Under the pieces are notes generated by a model. That model saw only the letters and a list, made by a program, of their open reading frames with translations. It was not told where the DNA came from and did not search any database. From an uncultured Gammaproteobacteria bacterium (lineage in GTDB: Bacteria > Patescibacteriota > Microgenomatia > 2-02-FULL-39-11), in contig CAYIFB010000005.1 of the NCBI GenBank assembly GCA_964362665.1, forward strand, positions 2,556 through 66,555: a stretch of DNA of 64,000 nt, in the 5' to 3' direction. The translations under genes and the position numbers were made by a program. How positions within the stretch are numbered: the stretch's first letter is position 1; the number at the start of each line of letters is the position of its first letter. Below, one piece after another: positions 2,300-50,147 of the stretch.

Positions 2300-2334
2300 A
2301 AGTCCCGCAGTTGGCGGGACTTCTTTTATTTTAA
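2299..2334 (+). terminator. rho-independent terminator (plus-strand orientation)
   Basis: Perfect 9-bp stem aagtcccgc-agtt-gcgggactt followed by cttttatttt. It overlaps the stop codon of the minus-strand gene ending at 2326. Confidence 0.5.
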
Positions 2335-4698
2335 CCACTTTAAAAACTTTATAGATTTAATTTTCTTTCTGAAGACTACTAGAAGTACCAGTCCGGCTAT
2401 CTCTAACCATAAAAGAATTACTTTGAGTGTATTCGGCTGATAAGTGAACTCTACTTCATGAACTCCAGGACCAGCCTGCAGGGCCAGATAGAAAGGAAAT
2501 ACGGCAAAGGTCGGCACTTTTTGTCCGTCAAGCGTCGCTTTCCAGTTGGGATGATAATTCATTTTTAAAAGGATAGTACACTGTTTGCAATTTTGAGGAA
2601 CTTCTACAGTCGCTTTATAAGACTGTTTCACGACGCTTTCTTTGAGGATTTTTCCGGAGACTGTTGCCTCCGGAAAAGTAAAAGGAAAATCGGCAAAGAT
2701 ATTGTTTTTTTTACCGTTTTCCGTGTAAGTTACTTCGTCCTGCATGGAGAGGGTTCTTTTCATGCCATCCGGAACTTGGGGATTTTTTTCAAGACTAATA
2801 AACGGGTATGACTTCCAAACCCGGGGATAGGATTTTTGCCAGAGATGGACGATATTGAGAAAGTTTGTTTTGTCAGATTTAACAAACATATCACTCGTAA
2901 CCACGTCAAACCAGCCGCTTGTTGGTACTTCATAAACTTTGAAAGGGCCGAAAGTCTTGGTGAGTTTTGCCTGCGGGGTAAATCCTTCGTCTTTGGTGGC
3001 AACGATAAAGTGAATGTTAAAAAGATCATAGTCAGCCTCAACCCTTTCGTCGAAATTCTGTTCGGTTTCAGATAAAGGCGACCAGGTTTCCGGCAGAAAT
3101 TGGCTCATATCAAAGCCGTTAACCCCAAGAAGCATATACATTTCCGTGGAGCCCAGCCTCATTTGTTTTCCCCAATTGCCGGGGCGACCTGCATAAATTC
3201 GGGCGTTAGGTTGGGATTTCAGGTAATTAATTAGATCCAGAAAATTATGATAATCATATTGATAAGCAATATTCGCTTCACCGATCCAGCGGTTGTTAAA
3301 GCTGGCATAATCTATTGTTTGTTTGACAAGGGTTACGCAGATCACTGAAACGAAAGTTAATACAAGGATATAATATATAATATTTTGATATAGAGATTTA
3401 GTTTTATCATCAAGAGACAATACTCTGGTAATTTCTTCTCCCTGACCTCTTATATATTTTTGTAATAAAAATTTTAATAAATTAATTATCCGCTCAAATG
3501 CCCATTCAATCATTTTTCTGAAAGAGCCAAAAATAGAGGAGTAGGCTACAGGCAGGAGAAACAGAGAGGTGATCTGAATACCTACAATAAATCTATGCAG
3601 GTGAAATTCAGACAATCCCGGAATAAGATTTATAAGTCCTCCCCAAGTCGTTCTGCCGAAGTACATAATAACCCACAGTAAAAACATCAAGGCAAAGATA
3701 AACAGTTTTTGGTCAAGAAGAATGGTGAAAAAACCAATACCGACAAGGTAGGTTGTTACTGCAGGTCTTTTCCAGTCAAAAATTTCACCCTGAAAAAATT
3801 GCCGCACCACTTCATACCAGCCGTATGAATCAAATTTCCAGATCGGATCCCAAAAAGATATCATGTGGTAATTGGTATATAAGAGAACTGGAACAATCCA
3901 GTATGACAGGATGAAGACAATGACAAGGTAAATTAAAACAAGTCTTTTCAGCCTTAAAAGAATAAGTTTCGGATTCAGATCCAAAAAGATAAAGATCCCA
4001 CCGGAAATCAGAGAAATCATGCCAATCCCAAGGTGTCCGCTGATTGTTAAAACCAGAAAAAGAATCGCCAGGAAAATAGGTAGCGGTTTGCTGTAATTTT
4101 TTAAAGATAAATATAGGAAAGATAAGCCAAGAGGCATGAAAAATATGGCATAAAGCTGGGAAGTTAGGCCATAACCCCGCCAGAGGAAACTGGGAGGATC
4201 AATGCCGTAATATCCGTCAGTTGAGAAGTTAGCGGCCGTGAATGCCGTGAGGGCGCAGGTGAAAGGGGAGAAACCAAGTATCCGCAGGGAGAGAAAAATC
4301 GGCAGTGGAAAGAGGATCAGGAGTAGGAATTTGGTCAGATTGTAATACTGGTAAAGCGTGAAATTGCTTTGAAAAAGGCTTGTAACAGGTTGGATTATAA
4401 GATGGTATGAAGACACAAGAACAATTTGCGGCAGATGTGTGTAGTAAAAGGGCAGAGAATACCCTTCTGCCCAGGCAGTAACCAGATGATCCATCAAGTT
4501 GGGAAGGCAGTTTAAAGACAGCGGGCATCCGTAATTTTCCCAAACCCAGTTAGTACGATAGACCAGAGAATACTGGAAGATATTATCGTTGGGGTCTGCC
4601 AGAATTTTCGTCTCCGGAAAATACAGCCAAAAGTTAAACCCGATGGTAAATATCAGTATCAGATAACCCAATACAGACGTAATTTTTTTCATATTCAC
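2326..4698 (-). CDS. YfhO-like polytopic membrane glycosyltransferase (GT-C fold)
   Basis: About 14 predicted TM helices in the N-terminal two thirds and a large C-terminal extracytoplasmic domain. The C-terminal 'NYHPNWKATLDGQKVPTF...HEVEFTYQP' resembles the YfhO/GT-C C-terminal 'NYdkGWKAyVDGkev...Hkvef.Y' signature. Shares a 4-nt overlap with the next gene. Confidence 0.6.
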   Translation of the reverse strand: MNMKKITSVLGYLILIFTIGFNFWLYFPETKILADPNDNIFQYSLVYRTNWVWENYGCPLSLNCLPNLMDHLVTAWAEGYSLPFYYTHLPQIVLVSSYHLIIQPVTSLFQSNFTLYQYYNLTKFLLLILFPLPIFLSLRILGFSPFTCALTAFTAANFSTDGYYGIDPPSFLWRGYGLTSQLYAIFFMPLGLSFLYLSLKNYSKPLPIFLAILFLVLTISGHLGIGMISLISGGIFIFLDLNPKLILLRLKRLVLIYLVIVFILSYWIVPVLLYTNYHMISFWDPIWKFDSYGWYEVVRQFFQGEIFDWKRPAVTTYLVGIGFFTILLDQKLFIFALMFLLWVIMYFGRTTWGGLINLIPGLSEFHLHRFIVGIQITSLFLLPVAYSSIFGSFRKMIEWAFERIINLLKFLLQKYIRGQGEEITRVLSLDDKTKSLYQNIIYYILVLTFVSVICVTLVKQTIDYASFNNRWIGEANIAYQYDYHNFLDLINYLKSQPNARIYAGRPGNWGKQMRLGSTEMYMLLGVNGFDMSQFLPETWSPLSETEQNFDERVEADYDLFNIHFIVATKDEGFTPQAKLTKTFGPFKVYEVPTSGWFDVVTSDMFVKSDKTNFLNIVHLWQKSYPRVWKSYPFISLEKNPQVPDGMKRTLSMQDEVTYTENGKKNNIFADFPFTFPEATVSGKILKESVVKQSYKATVEVPQNCKQCTILLKMNYHPNWKATLDGQKVPTFAVFPFYLALQAGPGVHEVEFTYQPNTLKVILLWLEIAGLVLLVVFRKKIKSIKFLKWLK

Positions 4699-6527
4699 GG
4701 ATAAAGTATAGGACTGAGCCAGTCGGCATGGTCGTTATTGTTTCCGTCACCTCCGTCATCCACAATGAGCGCCAAATTTTTAACTCCGCTGACATCAACT
4801 TCAGCGTGTTTGGGAAAATCAAATCTGCCCATTTTACCACTATCAAAAAGCTTTTTGCCGTCACCCAAAATTTGAAAAACCACTGTAGCCTGAGTGCCTG
4901 CCTCGTTATCAATGCCCATATCTGTAGAAAATCTTTTGAACTTTTTATTAATATCAAAGACCAGATTTGATTTGGCATGGGCCCCAAAACCCTTTCGATA
5001 ATAAAAGTAATTATTAGAGAGTCTATTCCAGGATTTCCAGCCGGAGAAGGAATTAACGCTTTTATTTACCTGAAGAATACTAAAATCCTGAGAGGCTATA
5101 ATAGGCTTAAAGGATGTTAAAGAAACTTTTTGACGGAGCAGGAGGGATGAATTAGTGAGAGTTAGGCCAATGGCAGTAAGTATAAAAGGGACTGTCAGAA
5201 TAAATGGGGAAATCTGTGAGAAGACAAAAGGCAATAAAGCAAAAAAAAGCAGGATATGAAGATAAGCACTGGCTATTGTAAGTTGCGGTGTAGTGATTTT
5301 TGAGAGAAGTCCCCAGCCATTTTGAGGATAATTATAAATCAAACCAAAATGAATATTAAAAAAGATTAGAATGCTGGCCAAAATATATAAAATCCAGAAA
5401 TAGTTGGCGCTTCTGAATAAATTTTTCAGATAGCTTTTTAAATTAATGAACCGTATCATGAATTTACCGTATTCCAGATTCAAAAAAGGATATAAAAACA
5501 ACATCAGGACGACCACAGGATAACTGTATCTTTCGTGGCTTTCAGTGGTAAAAAGGAAAAAAGCCAAGATGCCGATAATGAGAGACAGGAAAAAATTCCG
5601 GGCGTTAGTTTTTAAATACAACAAAAGACAGCTCAAGAAGTAAAAAGAGGAAAAGATGATTAGGCCAACTGTTTTAGCATTAGTCATTCCTAAAACCGTA
5701 ATTTTATCGATGACATTAAGTCCCTTCGCATTGGAGACAATCCACCAGAGATTATGGGCATTAAGAGAGAGCCAGGGAAAATAATCGCTGTTTAAGGTCA
5801 TCAAAAATAGGACCTGATTCAAATCGCCTGCTAAAACAAAAGGAAGACAGATCACGACAAAAGTTATTGCTGAAACAAACATAGATTTTATTAGAGTTTT
5901 TGAGCCAAAACTGCGATAAATGAAGATAAAGTAGATCGGCAGATAAATAATATTCTGGAGTTTCATGAGTGTGCCCGTAATAAAAATGAAGGTTGCCAGG
6001 TATGGTTTTCTATAAAAAAGAAGAATGATGGCAAGAAGTGAAAACATAATCCCGAAAGATTCTACCTGTCCCCATAACGCCGAGTCGATGATCACAACCG
6101 GGTTAAGGTAAAAAACGGCCGAGAGAATCAAGGGTAAATTAGGAGATAAGGGAAGAGTAACCCCAAGTTTTTTCAGGCGTTCTTTTTGCGAGAAAAAAAA
6201 ATAAATTAACCAGGCAATAAAAACATCGGCGGCAATTGCGATGGATTTGGAGACGAATAAAAAAGCAAAATTATTTTCACGCCAGAAAGAGTTGAAGTCA
6301 TGCGGATTTCCAAAAAATGAATATAGTTTACCCATAATCCACAATACATAAATAAATCCCGGCGGATAATTGATGTTTGTATTATGGGAAGTCCAAACGA
6401 TTCCATGGTCGATGGCCGCCAGTCCCCAGGATTTCCAGAACGAAACATCAGCCAGAAAACCTGTGTTGCCGATAAGAAGAAGTCTAATAACAAGTCCAAC
6501 TACGATCAGAATGGGAAAGGCAGACAT
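4695..6527 (-). CDS. polytopic membrane glycosyltransferase-like protein (GT-C/PMT-like) with a C-terminal NPCBM/NEW2-like carbohydrate-binding domain
   Basis: N-terminal multi-TM region with 'LLIGNTGFLADVSFWKSW' in the first loop. The C-terminus 'ATVVFQILGDGKKLFDSG...VDVSGVKNLALIVDDGGDGNNNDHADWLSP' matches the NPCBM-type 'vDGdgk...DHADWadA' pattern. Confidence 0.5.
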   Translation of the reverse strand: MSAFPILIVVGLVIRLLLIGNTGFLADVSFWKSWGLAAIDHGIVWTSHNTNINYPPGFIYVLWIMGKLYSFFGNPHDFNSFWRENNFAFLFVSKSIAIAADVFIAWLIYFFFSQKERLKKLGVTLPLSPNLPLILSAVFYLNPVVIIDSALWGQVESFGIMFSLLAIILLFYRKPYLATFIFITGTLMKLQNIIYLPIYFIFIYRSFGSKTLIKSMFVSAITFVVICLPFVLAGDLNQVLFLMTLNSDYFPWLSLNAHNLWWIVSNAKGLNVIDKITVLGMTNAKTVGLIIFSSFYFLSCLLLYLKTNARNFFLSLIIGILAFFLFTTESHERYSYPVVVLMLFLYPFLNLEYGKFMIRFINLKSYLKNLFRSANYFWILYILASILIFFNIHFGLIYNYPQNGWGLLSKITTPQLTIASAYLHILLFFALLPFVFSQISPFILTVPFILTAIGLTLTNSSLLLRQKVSLTSFKPIIASQDFSILQVNKSVNSFSGWKSWNRLSNNYFYYRKGFGAHAKSNLVFDINKKFKRFSTDMGIDNEAGTQATVVFQILGDGKKLFDSGKMGRFDFPKHAEVDVSGVKNLALIVDDGGDGNNNDHADWLSPILYP

Positions 6528-7418: not shown

Positions 7419-8096
7419 TTATTTATTGGGAGTCCAATCGACACTGTCAACAATTCTGTCAAAAATAGAGGGATCCAGATTTCCATTGGCCAAATGGATG
7501 ATGAGATTGTTATTGCCAGGAATCTCGAAAAAAACATCGACATTGGGGGTTTGGTCGACATTATTGATATAAACTGCCCGATAACCTTTGAGGTTATTTA
7601 TATTTTGAAAGGCGTCAATCTTATCAACTCCTTTCAAGCCGGAAAAGTACTTGTACCAGTTTTTCACATAATCAATAACCGGTTTTCCGGTAAGCAGGGG
7701 ATCACGGTCGGATATTTTTTCAATATTGAGGATTATATTTACTTTGGGATCGACATTTTCGAAACTGAAAGCGACGCTGTCTAATTTATCCTTGGGAAAA
7801 ACCACCAGTTTGAGAGATTCGGGATAGTTAAAAGAATACGGATAAATTATCCCTCGAAATTTAATCCATTTGTCATTCTCGGATGCAGTAAATAATTTTC
7901 GGGGTTTGAGAGTGAGTGTTGGTAAAATTGGTTTTACGGTCGAAGACGGACCAAGATAGGTGACTCCGCCGGGCAAAATAATGCTACTCGACTGGAGAAG
8001 GGAATACCGGTAAGTGATGTAAAGCGCTCCGATAGTAAGACATATGGTAAAGATGAAAAAAATTAACTTCTGCTGGTTTACCTTTTTAACTAACAT
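7419..8096 (-). CDS. hypothetical N-terminally anchored secreted protein
   Basis: Single N-terminal TM/signal-anchor ('LIFFIFTICLTIGALYI'). The rest is hydrophilic. No recognisable motif. Confidence 0.35.
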   Translation of the reverse strand: MLVKKVNQQKLIFFIFTICLTIGALYITYRYSLLQSSSIILPGGVTYLGPSSTVKPILPTLTLKPRKLFTASENDKWIKFRGIIYPYSFNYPESLKLVVFPKDKLDSVAFSFENVDPKVNIILNIEKISDRDPLLTGKPVIDYVKNWYKYFSGLKGVDKIDAFQNINNLKGYRAVYINNVDQTPNVDVFFEIPGNNNLIIHLANGNLDPSIFDRIVDSVDWTPNK

Positions 8097-8107: not shown

Positions 8108-9841
8108 GTGATAGAATTGTATCACCAATCAGTTGATCATAAAACAGCCTGCATGAAAAATAATCCTAAAAAAACAAAGTTAATCTTGATTTTTTTAAGC
8201 ATTCTATTTGTCTTCTTTTCCTTTTCACCCAGCCTCTACGAAATCGAACAAAAATCTTTGCTACCTCCCGAAAGATCTTTTGAGCTGGTGCACAATTACA
8301 TGTTTGATTATAACTTTTATCTGTCGAGAATCAGAGAAGGGTATGAAAACAGATGGCTCGTAACGGAGAAGTACTATAATCAACCGCATAACGGATCTTT
8401 AATCCAGGTCTTATATCTGTATCTGGGCAGATTTGGCAATCTCTTGAAAGTTGATCCTTCTACGGTTTATCACGCCGCCAGAATTATCTTCGGTTTGGCT
8501 TTTTTACTCCTTACTGCCTTTTATTGTTATAGATTATTCCCGTCAAAATGGTCTATTTTAAGTTTTATCTTTACGGTTTCTGCCGGAAGCTGGCCTGTTC
8601 TTGTCCGGGCAGGCAATTTCTGGCGGTTTGCGACATACATGGGTTGGTGGTCGGTAATTGATAGTCTGCAGAGGATTACCTTCATCCCGCATATTTTATA
8701 CGGTCAGCTGATTCTTCTTTGTTTAATTATGAGAATTACCCGGATTGAAGGTGGACGAAATATTCTTAATTTATTACTTTGGGGGCTGATTGGATTTTCA
8801 GCCGGTATAGTTTTTCCTCCGGCGCTCCTTATTTTGTTTACTTTTTTTGTGGTGTACAACCTATTGGAATTTTTTTCATCCAATTTCAGTTCGTCTCCTG
8901 CCAAAAAATGGCTAAAAGTGGAAATATTGCCTAAGCTCATTATTCTTTTTCTGTCTAGCTTATCTTTAGCGGTGATGAGCTGGCAATTAAGAGAATATCC
9001 CTGGAAAGCGCTGGCAGAATTTGACATCAACCACAGATTTATCATGCCCTATTTAGAATATATTTTAGCCTACGGCCCATTCCTGATATTTGCCCTGTTC
9101 GGACTGATTCAGGCAATCAGAAAAGTCGAGAGAAAGCTGTTTGGGGTTGTTGCCTGGATTATGGCCTTAATCATCCTTTTTGCCGTCTTTGAGTTTATTC
9201 CTCAGCAGTCCGCTCTTCGCTTCACCGAAGGGGCAATTCATATACCGATTGGTATTCTGGCCGGATATTTCGTCATGGAAGTTTGGAAGTATTCCGGAAA
9301 ACTTATTGGCAATAGGAGAGTGATTACCCGTGCTGTAATTATAAGCGTTGTCGGATTGTCGATATTAATGGAACTTGGGGTAATGACTTCGATGAGTTTA
9401 TGGCTGAAAGACCAAGCAGATTCTAAAAGATCGGGAACATTCAGAGTGCCGACAGGCGCCCAGCTTATTTATCCCCTCAAAGATTTTATGGACGCGATTT
9501 TCTATCTGAAATCAAATTCAGAGATTCGTGATGTAGTATTGGCAGGTGAGACTGCAGGAAATTATATCCCAGCCTACTCAGGAAATTTTGTATATGTCGG
9601 CCATGCCAATACACCTCATGAAGCAGAAAAAGCGCAAAAGGTCGAACAATTTTATGCGGGAAAAATGGAATTAAAAGATTCCCTGCAGTTTTTGAGGCGA
9701 GAAAATATCGCCTTTGTTTATTATGGTCCGCAGGAGAAAGATATGGGCAACCTTAACGGATTAAATATAAAATATCCGTTCCTTATAGCAGTCTATAAAA
9801 ATCCTCAGGTGATTATCTACAGGCTTAATTTAGGGCTTTAA
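8108..9841 (+). CDS. GT-C-like polytopic membrane glycosyltransferase, paralog family member 1 (alternative start at 8153)
   Basis: Shares with ORFs 9830-11509, 39824-41635 and 45273-47018 an acidic first-loop motif ('HNYMFDYNFYLS...G'), an 'RITFIPHIL' motif and a conserved C-terminal 'AGETAGNYIPAYSGNFVYVGH...FYAGKM' segment. Confidence 0.6.
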   Translation: MIELYHQSVDHKTACMKNNPKKTKLILIFLSILFVFFSFSPSLYEIEQKSLLPPERSFELVHNYMFDYNFYLSRIREGYENRWLVTEKYYNQPHNGSLIQVLYLYLGRFGNLLKVDPSTVYHAARIIFGLAFLLLTAFYCYRLFPSKWSILSFIFTVSAGSWPVLVRAGNFWRFATYMGWWSVIDSLQRITFIPHILYGQLILLCLIMRITRIEGGRNILNLLLWGLIGFSAGIVFPPALLILFTFFVVYNLLEFFSSNFSSSPAKKWLKVEILPKLIILFLSSLSLAVMSWQLREYPWKALAEFDINHRFIMPYLEYILAYGPFLIFALFGLIQAIRKVERKLFGVVAWIMALIILFAVFEFIPQQSALRFTEGAIHIPIGILAGYFVMEVWKYSGKLIGNRRVITRAVIISVVGLSILMELGVMTSMSLWLKDQADSKRSGTFRVPTGAQLIYPLKDFMDAIFYLKSNSEIRDVVLAGETAGNYIPAYSGNFVYVGHANTPHEAEKAQKVEQFYAGKMELKDSLQFLRRENIAFVYYGPQEKDMGNLNGLNIKYPFLIAVYKNPQVIIYRLNLGL

Positions 9842-41669: not shown

Positions 41670-42677
41670 ATGAATAATTCTAAAGTTTTGAAAGTCGCAG
41701 TCATAGGGGTCGGAGCCATGGGTAGAAATCACGCCCGAAGTTATTCCTCTATAAAAGGCGCCTCTTTAGTCGGAGTTGCGGATGTGAACGAAAGCCTGGG
41801 TCGAAAAATTGCCAAGACGTATCACACCAAGTTTTATGCGAGTTATTTAGATTTAATCAGTAATGAAAAACCCCAGGCCGTTAGCATAGTTGTGCCGACG
41901 TCGTTGCATTTTAAAGTTGCCATGGACTGCATCAACCACGGAATTTCAGTTCTGGTGGAAAAACCCCTCACCTCAACAGTTGAGGAAGCGGAAAAGCTAG
42001 TCAGAGAAGCCAAAAAAAGAAAAGTTGTCATACTGGCAGGACATATTGAGCGGTATAATCCGGTTATTGTAAAACTGCAGAAATTGATTAACTCAGGGAA
42101 ATTTGGCGATATTTTATCCATTGTAGTAAAAAGAGTCGGACTTTATCCGCCCAGGGTCAGGGACGTCAATGTGGTGACTGATTTGGCTGTGCATGATTTG
42201 GACATTATCTGTTCACTTCTTGGCCAAACGCCCACGCGGGTTTATGCCAGGGGAGGAAGAAGTTTAAACAATCAGAGGATAGACCACGCCGAAATTTTCC
42301 TCGACTTCGACCGCTCCAGCTGTTTTATTCAGGTCAATTGGATTACACCAATTAAAATAAGAACTCTGTCTATTACCGGAAAAAAAGGATTTGCAGAAAT
42401 CGATTATGTAGCTCAAAAGTTGGATATTTATAAATCAAATAACAACACCGGACTGCCTGCAGGCTTTCAGGAATTTCTTTCCAAATTCGGCGCTCCGCAA
42501 AAAGAGCAAATCAGACTTAAAGGGGAAGAACCCTTACGTCTCGAGCTTGAAGATTTTATACAGGCCGCCAGATTAAACAGATCCACTCTGGTTACTCCGG
42601 AGGAAGGAGTCCGGGCAGTAATGCTTTCCCAGGCAGTTCTTAAAAGCATCGAGCAAAATAAACCTGTTAAAATATGA
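41670..42677 (+). CDS. Gfo/Idh/MocA-family NAD(P)-dependent oxidoreductase (WbpB-like nucleotide-sugar 3-dehydrogenase candidate)
   Basis: 'LKVAVIGVGAMGRNHARSY' Rossmann motif. 'EKPLTSTVEEAEKL' EKP motif. Start set at the Met preceding NNSKVLK, because the longer ORF would overlap the convergent gene. Confidence 0.7.
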   Translation: MNNSKVLKVAVIGVGAMGRNHARSYSSIKGASLVGVADVNESLGRKIAKTYHTKFYASYLDLISNEKPQAVSIVVPTSLHFKVAMDCINHGISVLVEKPLTSTVEEAEKLVREAKKRKVVILAGHIERYNPVIVKLQKLINSGKFGDILSIVVKRVGLYPPRVRDVNVVTDLAVHDLDIICSLLGQTPTRVYARGGRSLNNQRIDHAEIFLDFDRSSCFIQVNWITPIKIRTLSITGKKGFAEIDYVAQKLDIYKSNNNTGLPAGFQEFLSKFGAPQKEQIRLKGEEPLRLELEDFIQAARLNRSTLVTPEEGVRAVMLSQAVLKSIEQNKPVKI

Positions 42678-43405
42678 AAAAAGTTTTTATCAGCGGATCT
42701 ACCCGCGGAATTGGGCGGGAAACCGCGCTAGAATTTGCAAGGAACGGCTATTGTGTGATTCTTAATGGACGACGTAAAAATCAAAAATCAGAGCAGATAC
42801 TTGCGGATATTAAAAAAATTTCCCCTGACTGCGAAATTTACTATTTTGATGTGTCAGATAAGAATAAAGTCAAACAAAACTGCCAAAAGATAGTTAAAAA
42901 ACACGGCTCTCTCGATGTTCTGGTGAATAATGCAGGTATAATCAAAGACAGTTCGTTCATTAAAATGAGTAACGAAGATTGGGATAAAGTTATTAAGACG
43001 AACCTTTATGGTCCTTATAATCTTATCAAAAACTTTTTGCCGGCAATGATCAAAAGACACTACGGGCGAATAATAAATATTTCATCTGTGGTGGCTTTGA
43101 CAGGTAACTTCGGGCAAACAAATTATGCTGCTTCCAAAGCAGGACTTTTGGGATTGACGAAGTCACTTTCCAAGGAAACGGCCAGATATAATATTACAGT
43201 CAACGCAGTTTGTCCCGGTTTTACTAAAACAGAGATGACAGCTTCAATTCCCAAAGATATATTAGAGAAAAAAATCCTGCCTAAAATTCCTGCCGGAAGG
43301 CTGTGTGATCCGAGAGAAGTCGCCAAATTAATCCTGTTTCTTTCCTCCGAGGAGAGCGGTTACATTAATGGAGAATGCATCAATATTAATGGAGGAATGT
43401 TTTAA
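42674..43405 (+). CDS. short-chain dehydrogenase/reductase (FabG-like 3-oxoacyl reductase family)
   Basis: 'ISGSTRGIGRETA', 'NNAGI', 'YAASKAGLLGLTKSL'. Confidence 0.8.
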   Translation: MKKVFISGSTRGIGRETALEFARNGYCVILNGRRKNQKSEQILADIKKISPDCEIYYFDVSDKNKVKQNCQKIVKKHGSLDVLVNNAGIIKDSSFIKMSNEDWDKVIKTNLYGPYNLIKNFLPAMIKRHYGRIINISSVVALTGNFGQTNYAASKAGLLGLTKSLSKETARYNITVNAVCPGFTKTEMTASIPKDILEKKILPKIPAGRLCDPREVAKLILFLSSEESGYINGECININGGMF

Positions 43406-43406
43406 A

Positions 43407-44081
43407 ATGAATGATTGTTTTATCGGTAAATTCGTCAAAATAGGGAGAGGCATAAAAATGGGCCACAACGTGGTTATCCATGACCATGTAACCATCGGAA
43501 AAAACGTACAAATTCACGACAACGCAGTGATAGGACAAAAGCCTTTTTCTTCTAAAATTTTAACCAGAAAATCTACGGCCGGGGCAAAAACTGTCATTTC
43601 TGACGGTAGTATTATAGGTGCAAATGTCGTGCTTTATGCCGGTTGCCAGATCGGGAAAAATACCATTATCTCGGATTTGGCAGCCATCCGCGAAAACTGC
43701 CGGATTGGAAATCAATGTACAATCGGAACCGGAGTGACCATAAATTTAGGAGCGGTAATCAAAAACAAGGTGAGAATCATGAATTCATCGCACATAACTT
43801 CCGATACTTTAATTGAAGATAATGTCTTTATCAGCGTGCATGTCACTTCCACCAATGATAATAAAATGGGCAGGTCAAAATTTAAAATGAAAGGCGTACA
43901 TATAAAAAAAGGCGCCTCAATAGGAGCTGGCGTAGTTTTCCTGCCGGGGGTGACTGTAGGAAGGCAGGCGGTAGTTGGCGCAGGAGCTGTCGTGACCCAT
44001 GACATTCCTGACAACAAAATGGTCTTCGGAATTCCTGCCAGAATTGTCAAAGATACGCCTGAAGATATGAAAAGCAAGTAA
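43407..44081 (+). CDS. hexapeptide-repeat (left-handed beta-helix) acyl/acetyltransferase, WbpD-like
   Basis: Repeated [LIV]GxxxxI hexads ('IGKNVQIHDNAVIGQ', 'IGANVVLYAGCQIGKNTII'). ATG at 43407 lies 1 nt after the upstream stop. Confidence 0.7.
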   Translation: MNDCFIGKFVKIGRGIKMGHNVVIHDHVTIGKNVQIHDNAVIGQKPFSSKILTRKSTAGAKTVISDGSIIGANVVLYAGCQIGKNTIISDLAAIRENCRIGNQCTIGTGVTINLGAVIKNKVRIMNSSHITSDTLIEDNVFISVHVTSTNDNKMGRSKFKMKGVHIKKGASIGAGVVFLPGVTVGRQAVVGAGAVVTHDIPDNKMVFGIPARIVKDTPEDMKSK

Positions 44082-44086
44082 TAATT

Positions 44087-45289
44087 ATGGAAATAAAAAT
44101 TTCTAATCCCTTTATCGGCAAAGAGGAAATAAACGCCGTTATCAAAGTGTTAAAAAGCGGAAATTTAGCCAGCGGAAACGTGGTTTCCGAGTTTGAAAGA
44201 GAATTTAAAGAGTATATCGGCGTCAAACATGTTGTTGCAGTATCAAGCGGTACTTCAGCATTACTTATTTCATTACTCGCCCTCGGAATTGGCCCGGGTG
44301 ATGAGGTGATTACTACTGCTTTTACTTTCCGGGCTACGATTGAAACCATTATTTTTTGCGGTGCCCTCCCCAAACTTGTTGATATTGATCCTTCTACCTA
44401 TAACATTAATCCTGATCTCATTGAACAGGCAATTACCAAGAGAACCCGTGCCATTCTCCCAGTCCACCTCTACGGACTCCCTTGTGATATGAATTCCATC
44501 ATGAGAATTGCCAAAAAGCACAATCTGAAAGTCATAGAAGACTGTGCACAGGCGCATGGAGCGTCTATCGCAGCCTCTGAGGTCGGTATGACTTTTTTGC
44601 GCACCTCCCAAACTCCCCCGATGCTATATCGGGGTCGAGGCCGTGGGCGTGCTCAAAAAGCATACCTCCCCGCGGCTGCTGAAGTTTTGCAAAAAGTAGG
44701 CAGTATAGGCGACGCGGGGTGTTTTTCGTTTTACGCTACCAAAAATATGACGACAGGTGAGGGGGGAATGATTACCACCAATAATGATGAATTATTTCAA
44801 AATATACTTCGTATCATAAAACATGAGGGGAAATTAAATATTGATTTATTAGATATACATTTCAGGATGACCGATATCCAGGCAGCGTTAGGACGGGTGC
44901 AATTAAAAAGATTAGACAGACTAAACAGGATAAGAATTAAAAATGCCAATTTTTATAAGCAAAAATTAAGTACGGTGAAAGGTTTGATCTGCCCGAAGGT
45001 GCCGGAAGGCAAAAAACATGTTTTTCATCAGTATACGGTGAAAATCAATGATAATTATTCTCTCTCCCGAGAGATGCTGTTAAAGAAATTAGAACAAGCT
45101 GGAATTCAAGCGAGAATCTATTATCCTCAGCCAATTCATAAATTATCATTATTTACAGGGTTATTCACCGGAAAAAATTTATCCCGGTCAGAACAAGTGG
45201 CCAAAGAGGTTTTATCACTTCCCATACATCCCAAACTTAATATAAAACAATTAAAGTCGATCGTTAACTGCCTTAAAAACGATAAATAA
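44087..45289 (+). CDS. DegT/DnrJ/EryC1-family sugar aminotransferase (WbpE-like), carrying a roughly 45-aa in-frame insertion
   Basis: 'AVSSGTSALLISL', 'AQAHGA ... VGSIGDAGCFSFYATKNMTTGEGG'. Insertion 'SIAASEVGMTFLRTSQTPPMLYRGRGRGRAQKAYLPAAAEVLQK'. A 160-nt block at 44401-44561 is near-identical to 35971-36131. Confidence 0.8.
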   Translation: MEIKISNPFIGKEEINAVIKVLKSGNLASGNVVSEFEREFKEYIGVKHVVAVSSGTSALLISLLALGIGPGDEVITTAFTFRATIETIIFCGALPKLVDIDPSTYNINPDLIEQAITKRTRAILPVHLYGLPCDMNSIMRIAKKHNLKVIEDCAQAHGASIAASEVGMTFLRTSQTPPMLYRGRGRGRAQKAYLPAAAEVLQKVGSIGDAGCFSFYATKNMTTGEGGMITTNNDELFQNILRIIKHEGKLNIDLLDIHFRMTDIQAALGRVQLKRLDRLNRIRIKNANFYKQKLSTVKGLICPKVPEGKKHVFHQYTVKINDNYSLSREMLLKKLEQAGIQARIYYPQPIHKLSLFTGLFTGKNLSRSEQVAKEVLSLPIHPKLNIKQLKSIVNCLKNDK

Positions 45290-47018
45290 CTGCCTGAGGA
45301 TTATTGTAGACAGGTTTTAAAAAGGGATAGACCATCTCTAAGCTCTTTCCTTTGGATTTTTCTTTTTCCTGGACGCTGACGAAGATATATTTGACACGGT
45401 TATTTTTCAGGAAGATTTCCGCTTCCCGTACCGGCATTTTGCCTGTATAAAATCTATCAACCAGACGCTGTTTTTCCTCATAATTGACGGTATTTGATTG
45501 GCCAAAGAAGACGGTATTGCCGGAGTAGGCGGGAATAAAATTGCCGGCGGTGATTTCAGCCAAAACCACATCACTGCGAATTGTGTTATTTTTCAGCCAG
45601 CGTATGCCATCCATCCAGGTTCTCAGAGGATACATGGTTTGGGGAGGATAGGGGACAGCCGGAATATTGGCCCGTACTCTTTGGGTAATGAAATTGGTCT
45701 GCCAGGATATACTAACTTTCATCATAAAGAAATTTAATGCAAGATAACAAATAACAAATAACAGATAACAGAAACAGAAAAAATGCTTTACCGACAAATC
45801 TTTATATTTGAAACTCACGATAAATTCCCAAACTTGTTGGAAAAAGTAAACAGCCAGAAGTCCTAAAGGAATGAAAAGCCCGGTTTGGGTGAAGCGGAGC
45901 GGGCTTTGCTCTTTGATATAGGTAAAAAGTATGGCAAAAAGAAAAGTCATCAAAATCCAAAAAGTGAGAGGATGAAATTTGCTGTCTCTTTTGACAAGTG
46001 AGATGAAAATACCAAAAAGAGCCAGAAAAAAGACAGGACCGGTTCCCAAAAGATATTCCCAAAAAGGAATGAGCATAGGATGGGTCTGGTGGAAAATTAC
46101 CAGAGATGACCAGGGAGGTACGCGGGTGATAAAAAATAAGTAAATTAAAGATGGTGCACTAAGAATTATGAATAATATCAGCTTGCTGAGGTCGGGTAAG
46201 AAATTTGTCGTATCTGCAAGTCGTTCGTCTCGATTGAATAGGGACTCACTCTCCCTTCGGTGCAGATAACGCCAAATTTTTACCCTCCCCGCAAGCTTAA
46301 TGAAGATGATTGTCATAATGATTCCGTAAAGAGTCATTAAACTTGGAGGAAACACTAAGCCTACGGCATTGCCTAAAATTATTAGCGGTATCAATTGTTT
46401 CAATGATAAATTGTTAATTTTTTTTATTACCAACCAATACAGCAGGAAAAACGATCCGACCTGGCCGAATAAGATGTGGGGGATGAAGGTGATTCTTTGC
46501 ACCGCGTCGATATTCGACCACCATTCCATGAACCGGCCGACCTGAAACGCTCCATTATTTTCCATGATCAGCCTGGGAAAACTGCCTGATGAAAGAATTA
46601 TTAAAAAGGCTAAAACCTGCCAGAAAAACTTTTTAAAATATACTTTGGTCAGGAAACAAATCATAATTAAAAGTAGAGGAGACAGAATAATCCTGCCCAA
46701 CTGATAAGCTGAATTAGGACTTAGTCCCATCGTTTTACCAAGTAGTCCTAAAACGACATAAAATTCCTGAATGAGTGATCCCTGGTGTGGTTCGCTCGTG
46801 AAACGCTCCAGGGCAGTCAGGCGTCCTTCAGTGCCCTGTCTGATTTTGGAGAGGTAAAGATTATAATCAGGCCAGTAGAAATTATGTTCCAGAATAAATT
46901 CACGGTTAGGGTCTCCCAGGCTTTTGGACTTCGATAATTCAAAAATCGTGGGATAAAAAGAGATTGCCAAAAAAACGATTATTAGAGAAGTAAAAATGAT
47001 AGTTTTTACTGAATTCAT
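45273..47018 (-). CDS. GT-C-like membrane glycosyltransferase, paralog family member 4
   Basis: 'EHNFYWPDYNLYLSKIRQG', 'RITFIPHILFGQ', C-terminal 'GNFIPAYSGNTVFFGQ...FYTGKMP'. Start set at MNSVKT, because the upstream 28 codons of the longer ORF are a repeat element. A GC-rich segment at 46200-46290 may be another in-frame insertion. Confidence 0.6.
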   Translation of the reverse strand: MNSVKTIIFTSLIIVFLAISFYPTIFELSKSKSLGDPNREFILEHNFYWPDYNLYLSKIRQGTEGRLTALERFTSEPHQGSLIQEFYVVLGLLGKTMGLSPNSAYQLGRIILSPLLLIMICFLTKVYFKKFFWQVLAFLIILSSGSFPRLIMENNGAFQVGRFMEWWSNIDAVQRITFIPHILFGQVGSFFLLYWLVIKKINNLSLKQLIPLIILGNAVGLVFPPSLMTLYGIIMTIIFIKLAGRVKIWRYLHRRESESLFNRDERLADTTNFLPDLSKLILFIILSAPSLIYLFFITRVPPWSSLVIFHQTHPMLIPFWEYLLGTGPVFFLALFGIFISLVKRDSKFHPLTFWILMTFLFAILFTYIKEQSPLRFTQTGLFIPLGLLAVYFFQQVWEFIVSFKYKDLSVKHFFCFCYLLFVICYLALNFFMMKVSISWQTNFITQRVRANIPAVPYPPQTMYPLRTWMDGIRWLKNNTIRSDVVLAEITAGNFIPAYSGNTVFFGQSNTVNYEEKQRLVDRFYTGKMPVREAEIFLKNNRVKYIFVSVQEKEKSKGKSLEMVYPFLKPVYNNPQAVIYRF

Positions 47019-47144
47019 ACGAGATCCTTCGACGCGTTTCGGGACGTACCGTATGGAACATCCCTTCGCTTGCTCAGGATGACATCGCCTTCGGCGAGTC
47101 ACTTGACCATGATAATATTATAGCTTAACATAAGGCACGAATAT

Positions 47145-48179
47145 ATGACTTTTCTTTCAATCATCATACCTGTTTACAATTCTCAAAATTCGATCACCCC
47201 TCTTTTAAATTCCCTGATTTCCGCCAGGAAGGTGAACTTTAAGGAAATTGAACTGATCCTGGTGGACGACGCGTCACAGGATAATTCTTTGAAACTTATA
47301 GAGAAATGGCTTACCTTAAAGGGTGACACCTTTAAAGGTGTGAAGACTTTGAGTCTGAAGAAAAATTCCGGTCCGGCCAAAGCCCGTAATATCGGAGTCA
47401 AATACGCCAAGGGAAAGGTAGTATTATTTCTAGATTCTGATGTAGAAGTTTATAGTAATACTCTTTTTGAAATAATAAGATCCTTTAAAAATGATCCGGA
47501 TCTTCATGCTTTGACAGGGGTCTGGGATAAAAAGCAGAAAGGACATAAATTATTCCAGAAATTCAAAGCCTTGAGAGACTGGAGCTATTGGATTAATGAA
47601 CGCGATCCCCGCAATTATTATTATTTATTTTCGACCCGCATCGCCGCCATCGACAGGCAGTTATTTTTAAGGCTTGGCGGGTTTGATACGACTTATAAAG
47701 CCGCTCTGGTTGAAGATATCGAACTGACTTATAGAATTGCCAAAAGGTATGCGGTGGTTTTCGACCCGAAAGCCATTGTCCGTCATGAATTTGAGGATTT
47801 TGGACCAATTTTCCGGAAATATTTCTGGAGATCATACTACTGGAGCCGGATTTACCGCGAAAGGAAAAAATTTGATCCTGTCGCAACTACCGGTAAGGAA
47901 GCAGTGACCACAATATCGGCAGGAGGCTTGGTAGCAGTATCGGCATTGATGTTATTTAGTTCTTTAAGTCACTTAAATTATTTACAATACGTATTTCAAA
48001 CTACTTTCTACCTGCTACTGATTATTCATCTCTGGGGGGTACGCAAATTTCTCTGGTTTGTCTTTCAGGAAGAGGGAATTATTTTTGCTTTTTATTCTTT
48101 TTTGACAGGTATTGCTTTATACCTGGCGATTCTTTCCGGGGCTGCTTATTCATTGTTGTGGAACAACCGTCGGAATTAA
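47145..48179 (+). CDS. GT2 family glycosyltransferase with C-terminal membrane helices
   Basis: 'LSIIIPVYNSQNSI', 'LILVDDASQDNS', 'PAKARNIGVKYAKG', 'FLDSDVEV' (DxD). Confidence 0.7.
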   Translation: MTFLSIIIPVYNSQNSITPLLNSLISARKVNFKEIELILVDDASQDNSLKLIEKWLTLKGDTFKGVKTLSLKKNSGPAKARNIGVKYAKGKVVLFLDSDVEVYSNTLFEIIRSFKNDPDLHALTGVWDKKQKGHKLFQKFKALRDWSYWINERDPRNYYYLFSTRIAAIDRQLFLRLGGFDTTYKAALVEDIELTYRIAKRYAVVFDPKAIVRHEFEDFGPIFRKYFWRSYYWSRIYRERKKFDPVATTGKEAVTTISAGGLVAVSALMLFSSLSHLNYLQYVFQTTFYLLLIIHLWGVRKFLWFVFQEEGIIFAFYSFLTGIALYLAILSGAAYSLLWNNRRN

Positions 48180-50147
48180 TTTTTGGGAAGGAAGAAGATT
48201 TAGGGCCGACGGAGATGAGTTTTCCAGATCGAGGGTGGGATTTTCAATTACCTTAACTTTTTTCAACTTCAGACTTCCGGTGGCAGTTATGGCTTCAGGA
48301 AATTGGGAGAGTTCATCTTCAATCTTTTTCATGTCACCCGAATCAAGTGGAATGAGGGATGCGGCGGTTTGAAGCTCTTTATAAGCTTCATCATACTTTT
48401 TTTGAGAGCGAAGCGCGACAGCCAGATCAAAGTGGGCATTAGCCAGGTCGGGTTTGAGATAGATTGCCTGGCGAAAGAGCATTTCCGCATCCGCATATTT
48501 TTTCAGATTAAGGTAAAGTACGCCTAAAGCAATCCTGTTTTTGGGAGACAGTGGATCCAGGGTGATTTTCTGCTGCTGGCTTTGGACGGCGAAGTTATCT
48601 GCGCCTGCTGCGTATCCGATGATATTGGAATAGGTTTTAGTCAGGTTGTCCCAGTTGATAACATTTGTGCGGAAAAGATTGACTGAAACACGGGCTTCAT
48701 CAATTGCCTGCTGGACCAGTCGGGGAATATTTTGTTGATCTTCAGCTGTGGGGTTCTTTTTAGATGCCAGAGCATTGGCCAGGGCCAAATTGGTTTGGGA
48801 GAGGGCATTGTGGTAGCGGTCGATATAGGGGTTAAGTTTTATGGCTTGCCTTTGGTAATTATAGGCAAGTGTTCCCTGATTATTGATCAGAGAATCCAAT
48901 GATTTTTTAAAATTCATTTCGGCGAAGTATGCTTTTCCTCCAAAAAAAATAACTAGAGAAAATATTATCAGAGAGGGTAAAATTAAGAGATATTTTAAAA
49001 ATCCCAGACTGGAAAAGTCTATTTCAAATGACGGTTTTTTACTCCCGGAAACAGCTAAAAGTATGATGGCCGTCGTCAAAAGTACCATACTGGTGGGAAG
49101 GATTATCTGCAGAAAAAGTATGGCGACTGCCATAATTTTGAAGGAATAAAAATTAGCGTTTTCATGATTTTTTATCAGAGCCTCTCCAAACAATTGTTTC
49201 ACTGCTTTAATAATAATTAAGACATACATTAAACCTGCAAATAATCCGTATTCAGTCAAAAGATTCAGAAGAAATGATGAGGAAGAGGTAAAAACTATAT
49301 TCCAGACAGGACTGCTGTTTATCGTCATGGGCTTGGAAAGTGTGAAAGCGGTAATAAAATTTGCAGGGCCAATTCCCAAGGCAAGCGTCCTGATGTTTTT
49401 TAAGGTTTCGAGCATTATAGACCAGCCGAAATTAAGGGGCAGAAGAATAGGCGACTGGTTGGTAGCAAGATGTATGGAAGTGATAATTGTAGCCGTTGTG
49501 ATGAGAAGTGCCGCGCTACCATAAAAAAGATAAAGATAACCCCAGGACCCTGATTGCATTATTTGGTTTTTTTCTTCACCATCTGAAATGAAATATTTTA
49601 AAAGGCAATAGATGGGATGAATCCCTAAAACGGCGAGAAATGTAACAGTTGAGAGGAGGCTTCCGGCCGGCGTTTGGATACTTTTGGGTAAAATTCCCAA
49701 ATAAAGAAAAATAAGATATAAAGATAATAAGACAGCATCAACCAAAAGAATCTGCATAAGGGTCGATTTATCATTTTCATCGACGGCATACGTCAAAAAA
49801 AGATAAAACAAAAAACCTTCAACAATAGTTGTAGTTGCAAGCGGGGTAGTGAGCGAGATAGCAAGATTTGGGGATTGGAAGAGGGTTGAGGCGATGACAA
49901 AGCCGGTGAGAAGCGAAAAGGGATATAAATAAATGTCTTTGATGACCATTAATTTCTGCTCTGTGATTATTCTGACCGACATCAGGATAAAGCCGACTGA
50001 GATAAATAAAGCCAGAAGAGCCATTTTGTTGTACTCATAATATTCAGGCACGATCTGAAGAAAAAATAAGGGGAAGAGAAAAACAAAGAGGAAAGTGGAA
50101 TATTTAATTATTTTTTTGATTGACATATATTTCGCAATGTCTATCAC
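48150..50147 (-). CDS. O-antigen ligase / Wzy_C-domain polytopic membrane protein with C-terminal TPR repeats (PglL/WaaL-like oligosaccharide transferase or polymerase)
   Basis: About 12 TM helices with a large loop of the Wzy_C type. The C-terminal roughly 250 aa hold TPR-like repeats ('YADAEMLFRQAIYLKPDLANAHFDLAVALRSQKKYDEAYKELQTA'). Confidence 0.6.
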   Translation of the reverse strand: MIDIAKYMSIKKIIKYSTFLFVFLFPLFFLQIVPEYYEYNKMALLALFISVGFILMSVRIITEQKLMVIKDIYLYPFSLLTGFVIASTLFQSPNLAISLTTPLATTTIVEGFLFYLFLTYAVDENDKSTLMQILLVDAVLLSLYLIFLYLGILPKSIQTPAGSLLSTVTFLAVLGIHPIYCLLKYFISDGEEKNQIMQSGSWGYLYLFYGSAALLITTATIITSIHLATNQSPILLPLNFGWSIMLETLKNIRTLALGIGPANFITAFTLSKPMTINSSPVWNIVFTSSSSFLLNLLTEYGLFAGLMYVLIIIKAVKQLFGEALIKNHENANFYSFKIMAVAILFLQIILPTSMVLLTTAIILLAVSGSKKPSFEIDFSSLGFLKYLLILPSLIIFSLVIFFGGKAYFAEMNFKKSLDSLINNQGTLAYNYQRQAIKLNPYIDRYHNALSQTNLALANALASKKNPTAEDQQNIPRLVQQAIDEARVSVNLFRTNVINWDNLTKTYSNIIGYAAGADNFAVQSQQQKITLDPLSPKNRIALGVLYLNLKKYADAEMLFRQAIYLKPDLANAHFDLAVALRSQKKYDEAYKELQTAASLIPLDSGDMKKIEDELSQFPEAITATGSLKLKKVKVIENPTLDLENSSPSALNLLPSQKLIPTVVPQQ

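Follow-up and report, generated by a model that had tools for sequence, protein, structure and literature searches.

Results

Eleven membrane glycosyltransferase genes in a 48-kb interval

The interval between positions 2326 and 50147 of a 64-kb stretch of contig CAYIFB010000005.1 (the whole stretch analysed is referred to as the window, and genes are named after their lower coordinate) carries eleven genes for membrane glycosyltransferases (GT) of the GT-C superfamily and four genes for family 2 glycosyltransferases (GT2), set among genes for sugar modification. All the open reading frames (ORFs) were found at the coordinates given in a preliminary description of this DNA. The eleven GT-C genes total 19.3 kb, which is 40% of the interval, and their products belong to at least six sequence-distinct families within 48 kb. 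The closest relatives of the window proteins come almost solely from Candidatus Gottesmanbacteria and other Microgenomates, within the candidate phyla radiation (CPR/Patescibacteria); the nearest genome is Gottesmanbacteria RIFCSPHIGHO2_02_FULL_40_13 (locus L001), whose counterpart of 8108 is 80% identical, and an identical copy of protein 2326 is encoded on ENA contig ERZ1292641 from Hainich groundwater. The GC content is uniform along the window (35-43%).

Ten of the membrane proteins had been proposed as GT-C enzymes and an eleventh, 13592, as a possible further one. The ten are polytopic, with 7-12 hydrophobic segments. Only 15716 and 37429 match a curated GT-C model directly (Pfam PMT_2), and the membrane domains of the remaining eight obtained no assignment in Pfam (E ≤ 10) or NCBIfam (E ≤ 1), so that independent evidence was needed to call them GT-C. 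When family A (five of these proteins, see below), 2326, 13592 and the tetratricopeptide repeat (TPR) membrane protein 48150 were compared by hhalign with PMT_2-type families, probabilities did not exceed 15%, and because of these weak scores the GT-C status of family A, 2326 and 13592 rests on structural or family-level matches. Profiles of family A (built from 5 and from 54 sequences), of the families of 2326 and 4695 and of the membrane part of 48150 retrieved no GT-C from PDB sequences, the carbohydrate-binding module (CBM) of 4695 alone finding a match. An acidic residue (Asp) shortly after the first transmembrane helix (TM1), which is a hallmark of GT-C enzymes, was found in every family, at 100% in seven families and at 83% in that of 13592. 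Each of the ten proteins was finally supported as GT-C by PMT_2, hhalign, family-level matches or predicted fold.

Family A consists of five paralogs (all-against-all blastp, E 1e-104 to 1e-12): 8108 (8108-9841, + strand, 577 aa), 9830 (9830-11509, - strand, 559 aa; 5e-33 to 8108), 26114 (26114-27733, + strand, 539 aa; 4e-15 to 9830 and 4e-13 to 8108), 39824 (39824-41635, - strand, 603 aa) and 45273 (45273-47102, - strand, 609 aa), the last being the closest paralog of 8108 (3.5e-104). Hydropathy analysis (Kyte-Doolittle) gave 8-9 hydrophobic segments for these proteins, and 11 TM helices, followed by a C-terminal alpha/beta domain, are present in the AlphaFold2 model of 8108, built from 54 sequences (pLDDT 93.2, pTM 0.92). 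Across 54 sequences the invariant positions (8108 numbering) are D67 in outer loop 1 and D185, R189 and P194 in outer loop 2, which bears the motif WWSxxDxxQR; E80 is conserved in 91%. In the model, D67, the WWSxxDxxQR motif with D185/R189 and the C-terminal domain all lie on the same, outer side of the membrane. The preliminary description had allowed that the membrane proteins might turn out to be transporters or polymerases. All 28 Foldseek matches of family A with E ≤ 1e-3 were GT-C glycosyltransferases, transporters, RodA and MprF appearing only at E > 0.2 and probability ≤ 0.2, and each of the six remaining proteins is linked to PMT_2, YfhO or ALG6/GT87 or to the fold of Pmt. The fold of family A is similar to those of STT3, AglB, PglB and DPY19, with an AglB/PglB-type C-terminal domain in common, and resembles AftA by fold and architecture only. 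Its TM number, the Asp in outer loop 1 and the modelled GT-C fold together place family A in the GT-C superfamily, and, judging from the adjoining GT2 synthase-like genes, it may use a lipid-phosphate-linked sugar donor.

Family A has no sequence match in Pfam, NCBIfam or PDB, and its five proteins miss PF13231. A profile search against 1.84 billion cluster representatives (50%-identity clusters) recovered 5,710 members at E ≤ 1e-3, 4,036 of them at E ≤ 1e-10. Members are named 'hypothetical protein' by NCBI, and two are named 'Glycosyltransferase RgtA/B/C/D-like domain-containing protein' by UniProt; automatic annotation has thus touched the GT-C link of the family, which is yet without a model of its own. 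Two closer assignments were considered. That of a true oligosaccharyltransferase of the STT3/AglB/PglB type (GT66) was rejected, as family A lacks the WWDYG motif (downstream of the last TM, no WWD occurs in the 54-sequence consensus), has 11 instead of 13 TM helices and finds no oligosaccharyltransferase in sequence searches. Nor is it detectably an AftA/GT85 (Rv3792-type) enzyme by sequence, since profile searches of PDB sequences, 8if8 included, gave nothing at E ≤ 10 and no detectable sequence similarity to AftA or Emb proteins.

In paralog 39824, short interspersed repeats have inserted in frame at two places (41156-41251 and 40712-40805); the insertions are specific to this paralog and fall in short loops; a member of its 90%-identity cluster is likewise 603 aa long. 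These repeats measure 94-96 nt, are GC-rich, resemble miniature inverted-repeat transposable elements and are 93-99% identical, the copy at 2204-2299 matching that at 41156-41251, and the copy at 40712-40805 that at 50144-50237. The element at 2200-2325 has a predicted fold of -65.6 kcal/mol (z -11) with three strong hairpins.

Protein 2326 (2326-4698, - strand, 790 aa) has about nine N-terminal TM helices, an extracytoplasmic domain of about 300 aa and a last TM at residues 758-776. This is the layout of YfhO, with a large outer domain ahead of the last TM, and the Bacillus subtilis YfhO shows the same architecture of TM bundle, large outer loop and last TM (PMC5836110). Its invariant residues after TM1 are E29 and D35-P-N-D38-N. 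The protein itself does not match PF09586 (YfhO) even at E ≤ 10; this model is matched by 33 of 49 aligned relatives (best 6.7e-11), relatives at 59% identity carry it, and several are named 'YfhO family protein' by NCBI. The protein can thus be assigned to the YfhO family only at family level.

Its neighbour 4695 (4695-6527, - strand) is a GT-C of 10 TM helices, ALG6/ALG8- and GT87-like, with an invariant D27 after TM1 and a C-terminal NPCBM/CBM51-like domain at residues 469-606 (Pfam NPCBM 3.3e-34; CBM51 structure 2vmg 1.2e-21), which implies a glycan ligand. The protein itself matches neither PF03155 nor PF09594, and in its family 11 of 30 sequences match Alg6_Alg8 (PF03155, best 9.2e-7) and 9 of 30 match GT87 (PF09594, best 3.1e-4). 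By hhalign the family is related to those of 37429 (79%) and 15716 (70%). Protein 4695 is placeable in the GT-C superfamily, not in a single family. In an independent assembly from this groundwater site (ENA contig L081, 2489-4325, with an identical 2326), the 4695 homolog is split into two ORFs of 173 aa and 395 aa, the longer with the NPCBM domain, which would reflect a frameshift in this allele or else a fault of the assembly.

Three further proteins are of PMT_2 type. Protein 15716 (15716-16978, + strand, 420 aa) is GT39/GT83-like (PMT_2 4.6e-9, PMT 3.9e-5) with an invariant D28 after TM1, and 37429 (37429-39171, + strand, 580 aa; PMT_2 4.3e-8) has 12 TM helices, a C-terminal domain and an invariant D39-x-D41-E42 after TM1; in its 90% cluster, one member bears the NCBI name 'glycosyltransferase family 39 protein'. 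Their PF13231 scores, 37.1 bits for 15716 and 34.0 bits for 37429, exceed the cut-off of 26.1. The PMT_2-related protein 34256 (34256-35626, - strand, 456 aa), with a conserved D44 after TM1, is tied to PMT_2 only through its full-length hhalign match to the 15716 family (97%, E 1.2e-10, 379 columns). Finally, 13592 (13592-15676, - strand) is an orphan of 694 aa with about 13 TM helices and a small C-terminal domain, for which a search of 5.8 billion sequences brought up no more than 12 relatives. Its fold is nearest to those of Pmt2 and Pmt4 and an acidic residue follows TM1, so that it joins the GT-C superfamily as the eleventh member in the interval, as had been suspected.

GT2 genes and their GT-C partners

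The preliminary description had counted four DPM1-like synthases. All four GT2 proteins match PF00535, and three of them are synthase-like. GT2a (11617-12399, + strand, 260 aa; PF00535 1.5e-22) has no TM and resembles polyprenyl-phosphate sugar synthases; its top PDB match is ArnC (9e-15, residues 7-235), followed by GtrB and DPMS, and its top NCBIfam match is again ArnC. GT2b (24254-24976, + strand, 240 aa; 8.6e-20), also TM-less and synthase-like, finds the Pyrococcus dolichyl-phosphate-mannose synthase (DPMS) as top PDB match (3.3e-15, residues 14-219) and ArnC over the same residues, and its alignments with the NCBIfam models PpgS and AglJ are full-length. The TM-less GT2c (39139-39837, - strand, 232 aa; 3.7e-13) is probably a polyprenyl-phosphate sugar synthase too, judging from its alignments with ArnC (2.8e-5, residues 6-203) and AglJ (residues 6-222). 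GT2d (47145-48179, + strand, 344 aa; 4.5e-29) is a membrane GT2 with at least two C-terminal TM helices and a generic, GT21-like character (Glyco_tranf_2_2 1.3e-17, Glyco_transf_21 5.7e-5; best NCBIfam EpsD), whose PDB matches, confined to the N-terminal ~120 residues, are to TarS-type enzymes, chondroitin synthase and GalT1. Judged by their nearest characterised relatives across the entire domain, GT2a and GT2b thus group with polyprenyl-phosphate sugar synthases, GT2c does so weakly and GT2d does not, and the count becomes three likely synthases and one unassigned GT2. The GT2s also match the NCBIfam PgfS model.

The three GT2/GT-C pairs that had been reported as adjacent or overlapping were recovered as such, and in all of them the GT-C partner belongs to family A: 9830 (-) and GT2a (+) are divergent with a gap of 107 bp, 39824 and GT2c lie on the same (-) strand, with the start of GT2c overlapping the end of 39824 by 14 nt, and 45273 (-) and GT2d (+) are divergent with a gap of 42 bp. 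The remaining one, GT2b, is two genes upstream of family-A 26114 on the same (+) strand. Translationally coupled to GT2b are two paralogous genes, 23251 and 23757 (23251-24257, + strand), for small membrane proteins of 168 and 166 aa with 3 TM helices and a soluble tail. Their mutual similarity is weak (E 0.011), they obtained no family assignment in Pfam or NCBIfam, and the tail has faint winged-helix matches. A similar tandem lies directly downstream of a family-A gene in a related locus (L064, 18025-19019), and another locus (L054, 7591-8058) has one copy in this position. These two proteins are the sole candidates, and candidates only, for an anchor or flippase role.

The same modules in related genomes

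A pattern scan seeded on family-A motifs, with one genome per species, yielded 80 loci, of which those with informative titles all belong to Gottesman-, Roizman- or Woesebacteria or to unclassified Patescibacteria. Numerous TPA records bear the title 'uncultured Gammaproteobacteria', in our view a mislabelling. These loci (≤ 22 kb) contain 1-9 GT-C genes with a median of 4, densities which are biased upward by the seeding, and a GT-C gene lies within 400 bp of 34 of their 76 GT2 genes. Two modules recur. The first has the order YfhO-like, ALG6-GT87-NPCBM, 7419-like, family A (8108), family A (9830) and GT2a; adjacency of the YfhO-like and ALG6-GT87-NPCBM genes was seen in 42 of the 80 loci. 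Gene 7419 (7419-8096, - strand), which encodes a conserved single-TM protein of 225 aa with no family match, is always found between the 4695-like and 8108-like genes in sibling genomes (L001-L005, L011, L035, L064). The second module comprises the TPR membrane protein, GT2d, family A (45273), family A (26114) and PMT_2 (37429), and its TPR-membrane/GT2d/family-A part is present in L036, L056, L067, L069 and L077. The pairing of 9830 with GT2a is conserved in sibling loci, and that of GT2c with a family-A gene was found again in L011. The comparison with sibling genomes therefore bore out the pattern seen in the window: since the same modules recur, the concentration of GT-C genes is clearly a trait of the lineage and not an oddity of this contig, which argues against an assembly artefact.

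Sugar-supply genes and other features of the interval

Between and around the GT-C genes lie several groups of genes for sugar modification, assigned by Pfam and NCBIfam and all on the + strand. The group at 17059-23246 includes two methyltransferases (17059, 17814), an acetolactate-synthase-like thiamine diphosphate (ThDP) enzyme (18485-20254; acolac_lg 1.9e-127, below the equivalog cut-off), a short-chain dehydrogenase/reductase (SDR; 20259), a zinc-dependent alcohol dehydrogenase (21119) and a dTDP-glucose 4,6-dehydratase-like, RmlB-like protein (22257; dTDP_gluc_dehyt 2.4e-62). An NAD-dependent sugar epimerase/dehydratase follows GT2b (24976-25965; Epimerase 2.7e-62). The group at 27817-34104 holds heptose and other nucleotide-sugar genes, namely an HldE-like bifunctional heptose enzyme (27817-29343; HldE 6e-57), an epimerase (29431), GmhA (30419; gmhA 2.8e-33) downstream of the HldE-like gene, the alpha (31050) and beta (32002) subunits of a ThDP-dependent E1 enzyme (31050-33090) and a dehydratase/epimerase (33097). 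The domains of the HldE-like protein are in reversed order, with the adenylyl/cytidylyltransferase N-terminal and the PfkB kinase C-terminal, and no GmhB phosphatase was found in the window. A DegT-type sugar aminotransferase (35648; DegT 2.4e-116) and a GNAT acetyltransferase (36799; GNAT matches) occupy 35648-37389. The last group (41565-45289) resembles a diacetamido-sugar pathway, with a UDP-GlcNAc 3-dehydrogenase (41565; UDP-GlcNAcDh 7.2e-94), an SDR (42674), a NeuD/PglB-type hexapeptide acetyltransferase (43368; NeuD_NnaD 1.8e-29) and a DegT aminotransferase (44087; PseC-like 1.5e-85).

The ThDP enzyme 18485 and the E1 alpha/beta pair are embedded among sugar genes in a genome with little biosynthesis. 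Such enzymes could presumably add two-carbon branches to sugars in the manner of YerE or AviB, and for 18485 the context and the below-cut-off score make a candidate sugar-branching enzyme more attractive than a housekeeping acetolactate synthase. The two DegT genes share 203 nt at 94% and 60 nt at 85% identity (35930-36267 versus 44360-44745), the rest being much less alike, which suggests a recent gene conversion or partial duplication. Outside these groups, 12363 (12363-13571, + strand) encodes a protein similar to SGNH/GDSL hydrolases (Lipase_GDSL_2 1.2e-8), which has a TM at its N-terminus and a region resembling AlgX (ALGX 9.8e-6) and is possibly a glycan O-acyl transferase or esterase.

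The partner of GT2d and of the 45273-like GT-C in the second module, 48150 (48150-50147, - strand), is a polytopic membrane protein with about nine TM helices and C-terminal TPR repeats. Only TPR matches were obtained for it, with no Wzy_C or PMT match in nine relatives and no PDB match for the membrane part. Its GxGxxNF motif might hint at an O-antigen-ligase-like protein, an identity that we do not claim. The GTG start listed for this gene lies within a repeat copy and the true start is probably a Met seven codons downstream; the exact 665-aa sequence is absent from the protein collection searched.

Two further families of intergenic repeats of about 90 nt (79-89% identity) are found at 16956-17046, 17722-17812 and 29344-29432, and at 22166-22252 and 26007-26094; one of the ~90-nt families contains a hairpin (z about -4). 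Rfam gave no match anywhere in the window.

Surface protein genes next to the interval

Beyond the interval, 52055-55966 (- strand) encodes a secreted S8 subtilase of 1303 aa (Peptidase_S8 1.7e-51). It contains a 218-aa Thr/Pro/Ser-rich linker (TPTPTxTPT..., residues 922-1139, nt ~52550-53203) encoded by a hexanucleotide-periodic repeat, which by inference only is a candidate O-glycosylation acceptor. Two other secreted proteins (50353-51438 and 55999-60291, both - strand) have a C-terminal DUF1554/endostatin-like domain in common, the larger (1430 aa) also carrying fibronectin-III domains, and form with the subtilase a block of large surface proteins adjoining the glycosyltransferase interval. 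A neighbouring 974-aa protein (61023-63947) has a shorter Thr/Pro/Ser-rich stretch (residues 619-674) and may be another O-glycosylation substrate.

Discussion

We interpret 2326-50147 as a cell-surface glycosylation island of Candidatus Gottesmanbacteria in which, according to the pathway proposed below, glycosyl transfer would occur mainly at the outer face of the cytoplasmic membrane; we put the probability of this interpretation at about 75%. A multi-step extracytoplasmic glycosylation had already been suggested in the preliminary description, and the identities of the GT-C proteins, their conserved acidic residue after TM1, the GT2 matches, the nucleotide-sugar genes lying between them and the conservation of the pairing in sibling genomes speak for it. 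So does the finding that no priming phosphoglycosyltransferase, GT-B, Wzx, Wzy or ABC exporter was detected among the window ORFs of at least 150 aa (Pfam).

In the proposed pathway, some 20 cytoplasmic enzymes would make several unusual nucleotide sugars, among which a heptose, a 2,3-diacetamido sugar and 4-amino-6-deoxy sugars are candidates, and methylated or C-branched sugars possible ones. GT2a, GT2b and GT2c would load single sugars onto polyprenyl phosphate, the lipid-linked sugars would be flipped to the outer face, a step that we infer, and the eleven GT-Cs would use them there to build or decorate a surface glycoconjugate. Because adjacency of GT2 and family-A genes repeats, each such pair may represent a donor-synthase/transferase module for one sugar or linkage. 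Genes 2326, 4695, 7419, 8108, 9830 and 11617 would form the conserved core, to which other modules would be variable additions.

Several observations weigh against this interpretation. No GtrA, MATE, SMR or Wzx flippase was recognised among window ORFs of at least 150 aa (Pfam, NCBIfam), and the intergenic gaps contain no small membrane ORF of 60-150 aa. GT2a, GT2b and GT2c have no predicted TM, unlike GtrB and ArnC with their C-terminal TM helices; in this they are, we assume, like the catalytic subunits DPM1, Ppm1 (D2) and PpgS. The top PDB match of GT2c, limited to the N-terminus, is GalT1 and not a polyprenyl-phosphate sugar synthase, and it has no clean DxD motif, while GT2d is generic and even its family profile has no preference for such synthases. 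Eleven transferases face at most three or four donor synthases, a surplus which means that one pair for one sugar cannot cover them all. Family A is structurally close to STT3-type GT-C enzymes, and some GT-Cs of this type use diphosphate-linked oligosaccharides. Function is read here from fold and context, and the analysis covers the 64-kb window, so that the genome may carry genes for priming enzymes or flippases outside it.

The contig was assembled from a Hainich groundwater metagenome and its interspersed repeats could mislead an assembler, so that the clustering might stem from a chimeric or wrongly binned contig. This we consider very improbable, given that many samples and species show the same gene orders on contigs of their own (L001-L011, L036, L056, L067, L069, L077), that 2326 is found with its left-hand neighbours on an independent ENA contig as well, and that base composition is uniform. 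It is also improbable, if to a lesser degree, that many of the GT-C-fold proteins are non-catalytic subunits (PIG-U/GAB1-like), flippases, polymerases or ligases and that the number of transferases is inflated. The lack of a flippase gene in the window would fit such roles (that YfhO itself flips its donor has been raised as a speculation, PMC5836110), as would the two repeat insertions of 39824, which might be decaying, and the finding of TPR matches only for 48150. Every family, however, keeps the outer-loop Asp of catalytic GT-Cs, and transporters, RodA and MprF were met by Foldseek only beyond E 0.2.

What the island makes can be read in two ways, which are compatible and not exclusive. 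It may build or decorate a wall- or membrane-anchored glycopolymer, on the model of mycobacterial arabinogalactan and lipoarabinomannan (LAM), made with decaprenylphosphoryl arabinose and polyprenylphosphomannose donors by Aft, Emb and PimE GT-Cs, or of the extracellular glycosylation of teichoic acids by CsbB/YfhO. The YfhO-family member 2326, the ALG6/GT87-like 4695 with its CBM, which suggests a glycan acceptor for at least this enzyme, the AftA-like fold of family A, the use of GT-Cs in series as in mycobacteria (PMC11127046) and the SGNH/AlgX-like 12363, suggestive of polysaccharide O-acylation, all point in this direction. Set against them, no polymer backbone gene (TagF/LtaS-like, GlfT-like, UbiA-type decaprenylphosphoryl-5-phosphoribose (DPPR) synthase or phosphoglycosyltransferase) is present in the window and family A has no detectable sequence similarity to AftA or Emb, and we rate this function as a plausible one at somewhat less than even odds. 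That the main job is instead O-glycosylation of proteins that are secreted or exposed on the surface, for instance the subtilase, at their Ser/Thr-rich regions, as performed by Pmt/Ppm in actinobacteria and Pgf in Streptococcus mutans, appears to us rather unlikely. Consistent with it are the three PMT_2-type GT-Cs, the nearness of 13592 to Pmt2 and Pmt4, the likeness of family A to the protein-modifying STT3, AglB, PglB and DPY19, including the AglB/PglB-type C-terminal domain, the PgfS matches of the GT2s, the large secreted proteins encoded directly downstream, among them the subtilase with its 218-aa Thr/Pro linker, and the precedent of Pgf, in which a GT2 and two YfhO-like proteins glycosylate Thr-rich repeats (10.1101/2022.10.10.511621). 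Yet the NPCBM module of 4695 points to a glycan as acceptor, family A is without the oligosaccharyltransferase motif WWDYG, known bacterial O-mannosylation needs far less than eleven transferases and some five sugar pathways, and the nearness to secreted proteins may be a coincidence.

The donor/transferase logic proposed for the glycosylation island belongs to a mechanism class already known from Gtr, CsbB/YfhO, Pgf and mycobacterial arabinan. Precedents for GT2 plus GT-C are the Gtr and three-component systems (Kelly et al. 2024, PMC11127046) and the CsbB/YfhO, YkcC/YkcB and YkoT/YkoS operons, all three present in B. subtilis (Rismondo et al. 2018, PMC5836110). In the Gtr systems of Shigella and Salmonella (GtrA/GtrB/GtrC) and in the GT136 pentofuranose systems, a synthase, of GT2 or other type, loads a monosaccharide onto polyprenyl phosphate for transfer at the outer face by a GT-C encoded next to it, as proposed here, and in a GT136 system one GT-C (ORF12) bears a CBM as 4695 does (PMC11127046). 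The island differs from them in having no GtrA, MATE or SMR flippase gene and in the TM-less nature of its synthase-like GT2s, so that of the gtrAB-gtrC analogy drawn in the preliminary description the GT2/GT-C pairing holds and the GtrA-type flippase is missing. These systems have one GT-C and attach side branches to a polymer of cytoplasmic origin, whereas the eleven GT-Cs of the island, with no pathway for a backbone linked to undecaprenyl diphosphate (Und-PP) nearby, seem to do most of the work. Within the window the island accordingly fits neither the definition of a Gtr system, for want of a flippase gene, nor that of an O-antigen cluster, for want of a phosphoglycosyltransferase, Wzx/Wzy and an ABC exporter.

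With the CsbB/YfhO, GtlA/GtlB and Pgf systems of Firmicutes the island shares the combination of GT2 and GT-C, the YfhO architecture of 2326 and the PgfS matches of its GT2s. Protein 2326 is, however, below the Pfam YfhO threshold and paired with an ALG6/GT87-like GT-C instead of a GT2, and the partners of the GT2s are family-A proteins with no sequence kinship to YfhO or GtlB. In scale and in its reliance on GT-Cs the island is similar to mycobacterial arabinan and LAM synthesis (AftA-D, EmbA-C, PimE; decaprenyl-phosphate donors), but it has no AftA sequence similarity, no UbiA-type DPPR synthase and no DprE genes, its host is a ~1-Mb CPR bacterium and not an actinobacterium, and its donors probably derive from nucleotide sugars via the GT2s. 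Compared with STT3/AglB/PglB (GT66), family A has 11 and not 13 TM helices, no WWDYG, and its sole WW motif (WWSxxD) in outer loop 2, and no gene for assembly of a lipid-diphosphate oligosaccharide lies nearby. As for Pmt/Ppm1 (GT39) and ArnC/ArnT (GT83), 15716, 37429 and 34256 are of PMT_2 type, the fold of 13592 is nearest to Pmt2, GT2a is nearest to ArnC, and the D-x-D-E of 37429 after TM1 resembles the Pmt DE motif; the island differs in its shorter proteins without MIR domains, its several paralogs and its multiple sugar pathways in place of a single mannose route.

New are the density of GT-C genes in a very small genome, the uncurated family A with five paralogs, the orphan 13592, the TM-less synthase partners and, apparently, the absence of a cytoplasmic assembly route. 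We found no paper on GT-C, YfhO or polyprenol glycosylation in CPR, Patescibacteria, Gottesmanbacteria or Microgenomates in the open-access library searched. A more far-reaching reading, which we regard as speculative and doubtful, is that Microgenomates-type CPR build a complex heteroglycan wholly outside the membrane, using only polyprenyl-monophosphate donors and a battery of GT-Cs and no cytoplasmic Und-PP repeat-unit pathway. Family A would be the workhorse, a new CAZy-level family structurally between AftA and the oligosaccharyltransferases, and the TM-less GT2s would be tethered by a GT-C or by proteins of the 23251/23757 type in the manner of DPM2/DPM3. If this were true, assembly outside the membrane would extend beyond mycobacteria and the eukaryotic endoplasmic reticulum, and family A would merit a new CAZy family.

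The CPR/Patescibacteria are ultrasmall, mostly uncultured bacteria, thought to live attached to other cells, and their surface chemistry is almost unknown. Family A, the orphan GT-C 13592 and the TM-less donor synthases are concrete enzymes that can be tested, and they open a route to predicted glycan epitopes for labelling or enriching these organisms. That a genome of the 1-Mb class gives 48 kb to a single island, and that its relatives do alike, implies that surface glycans are central to their biology.

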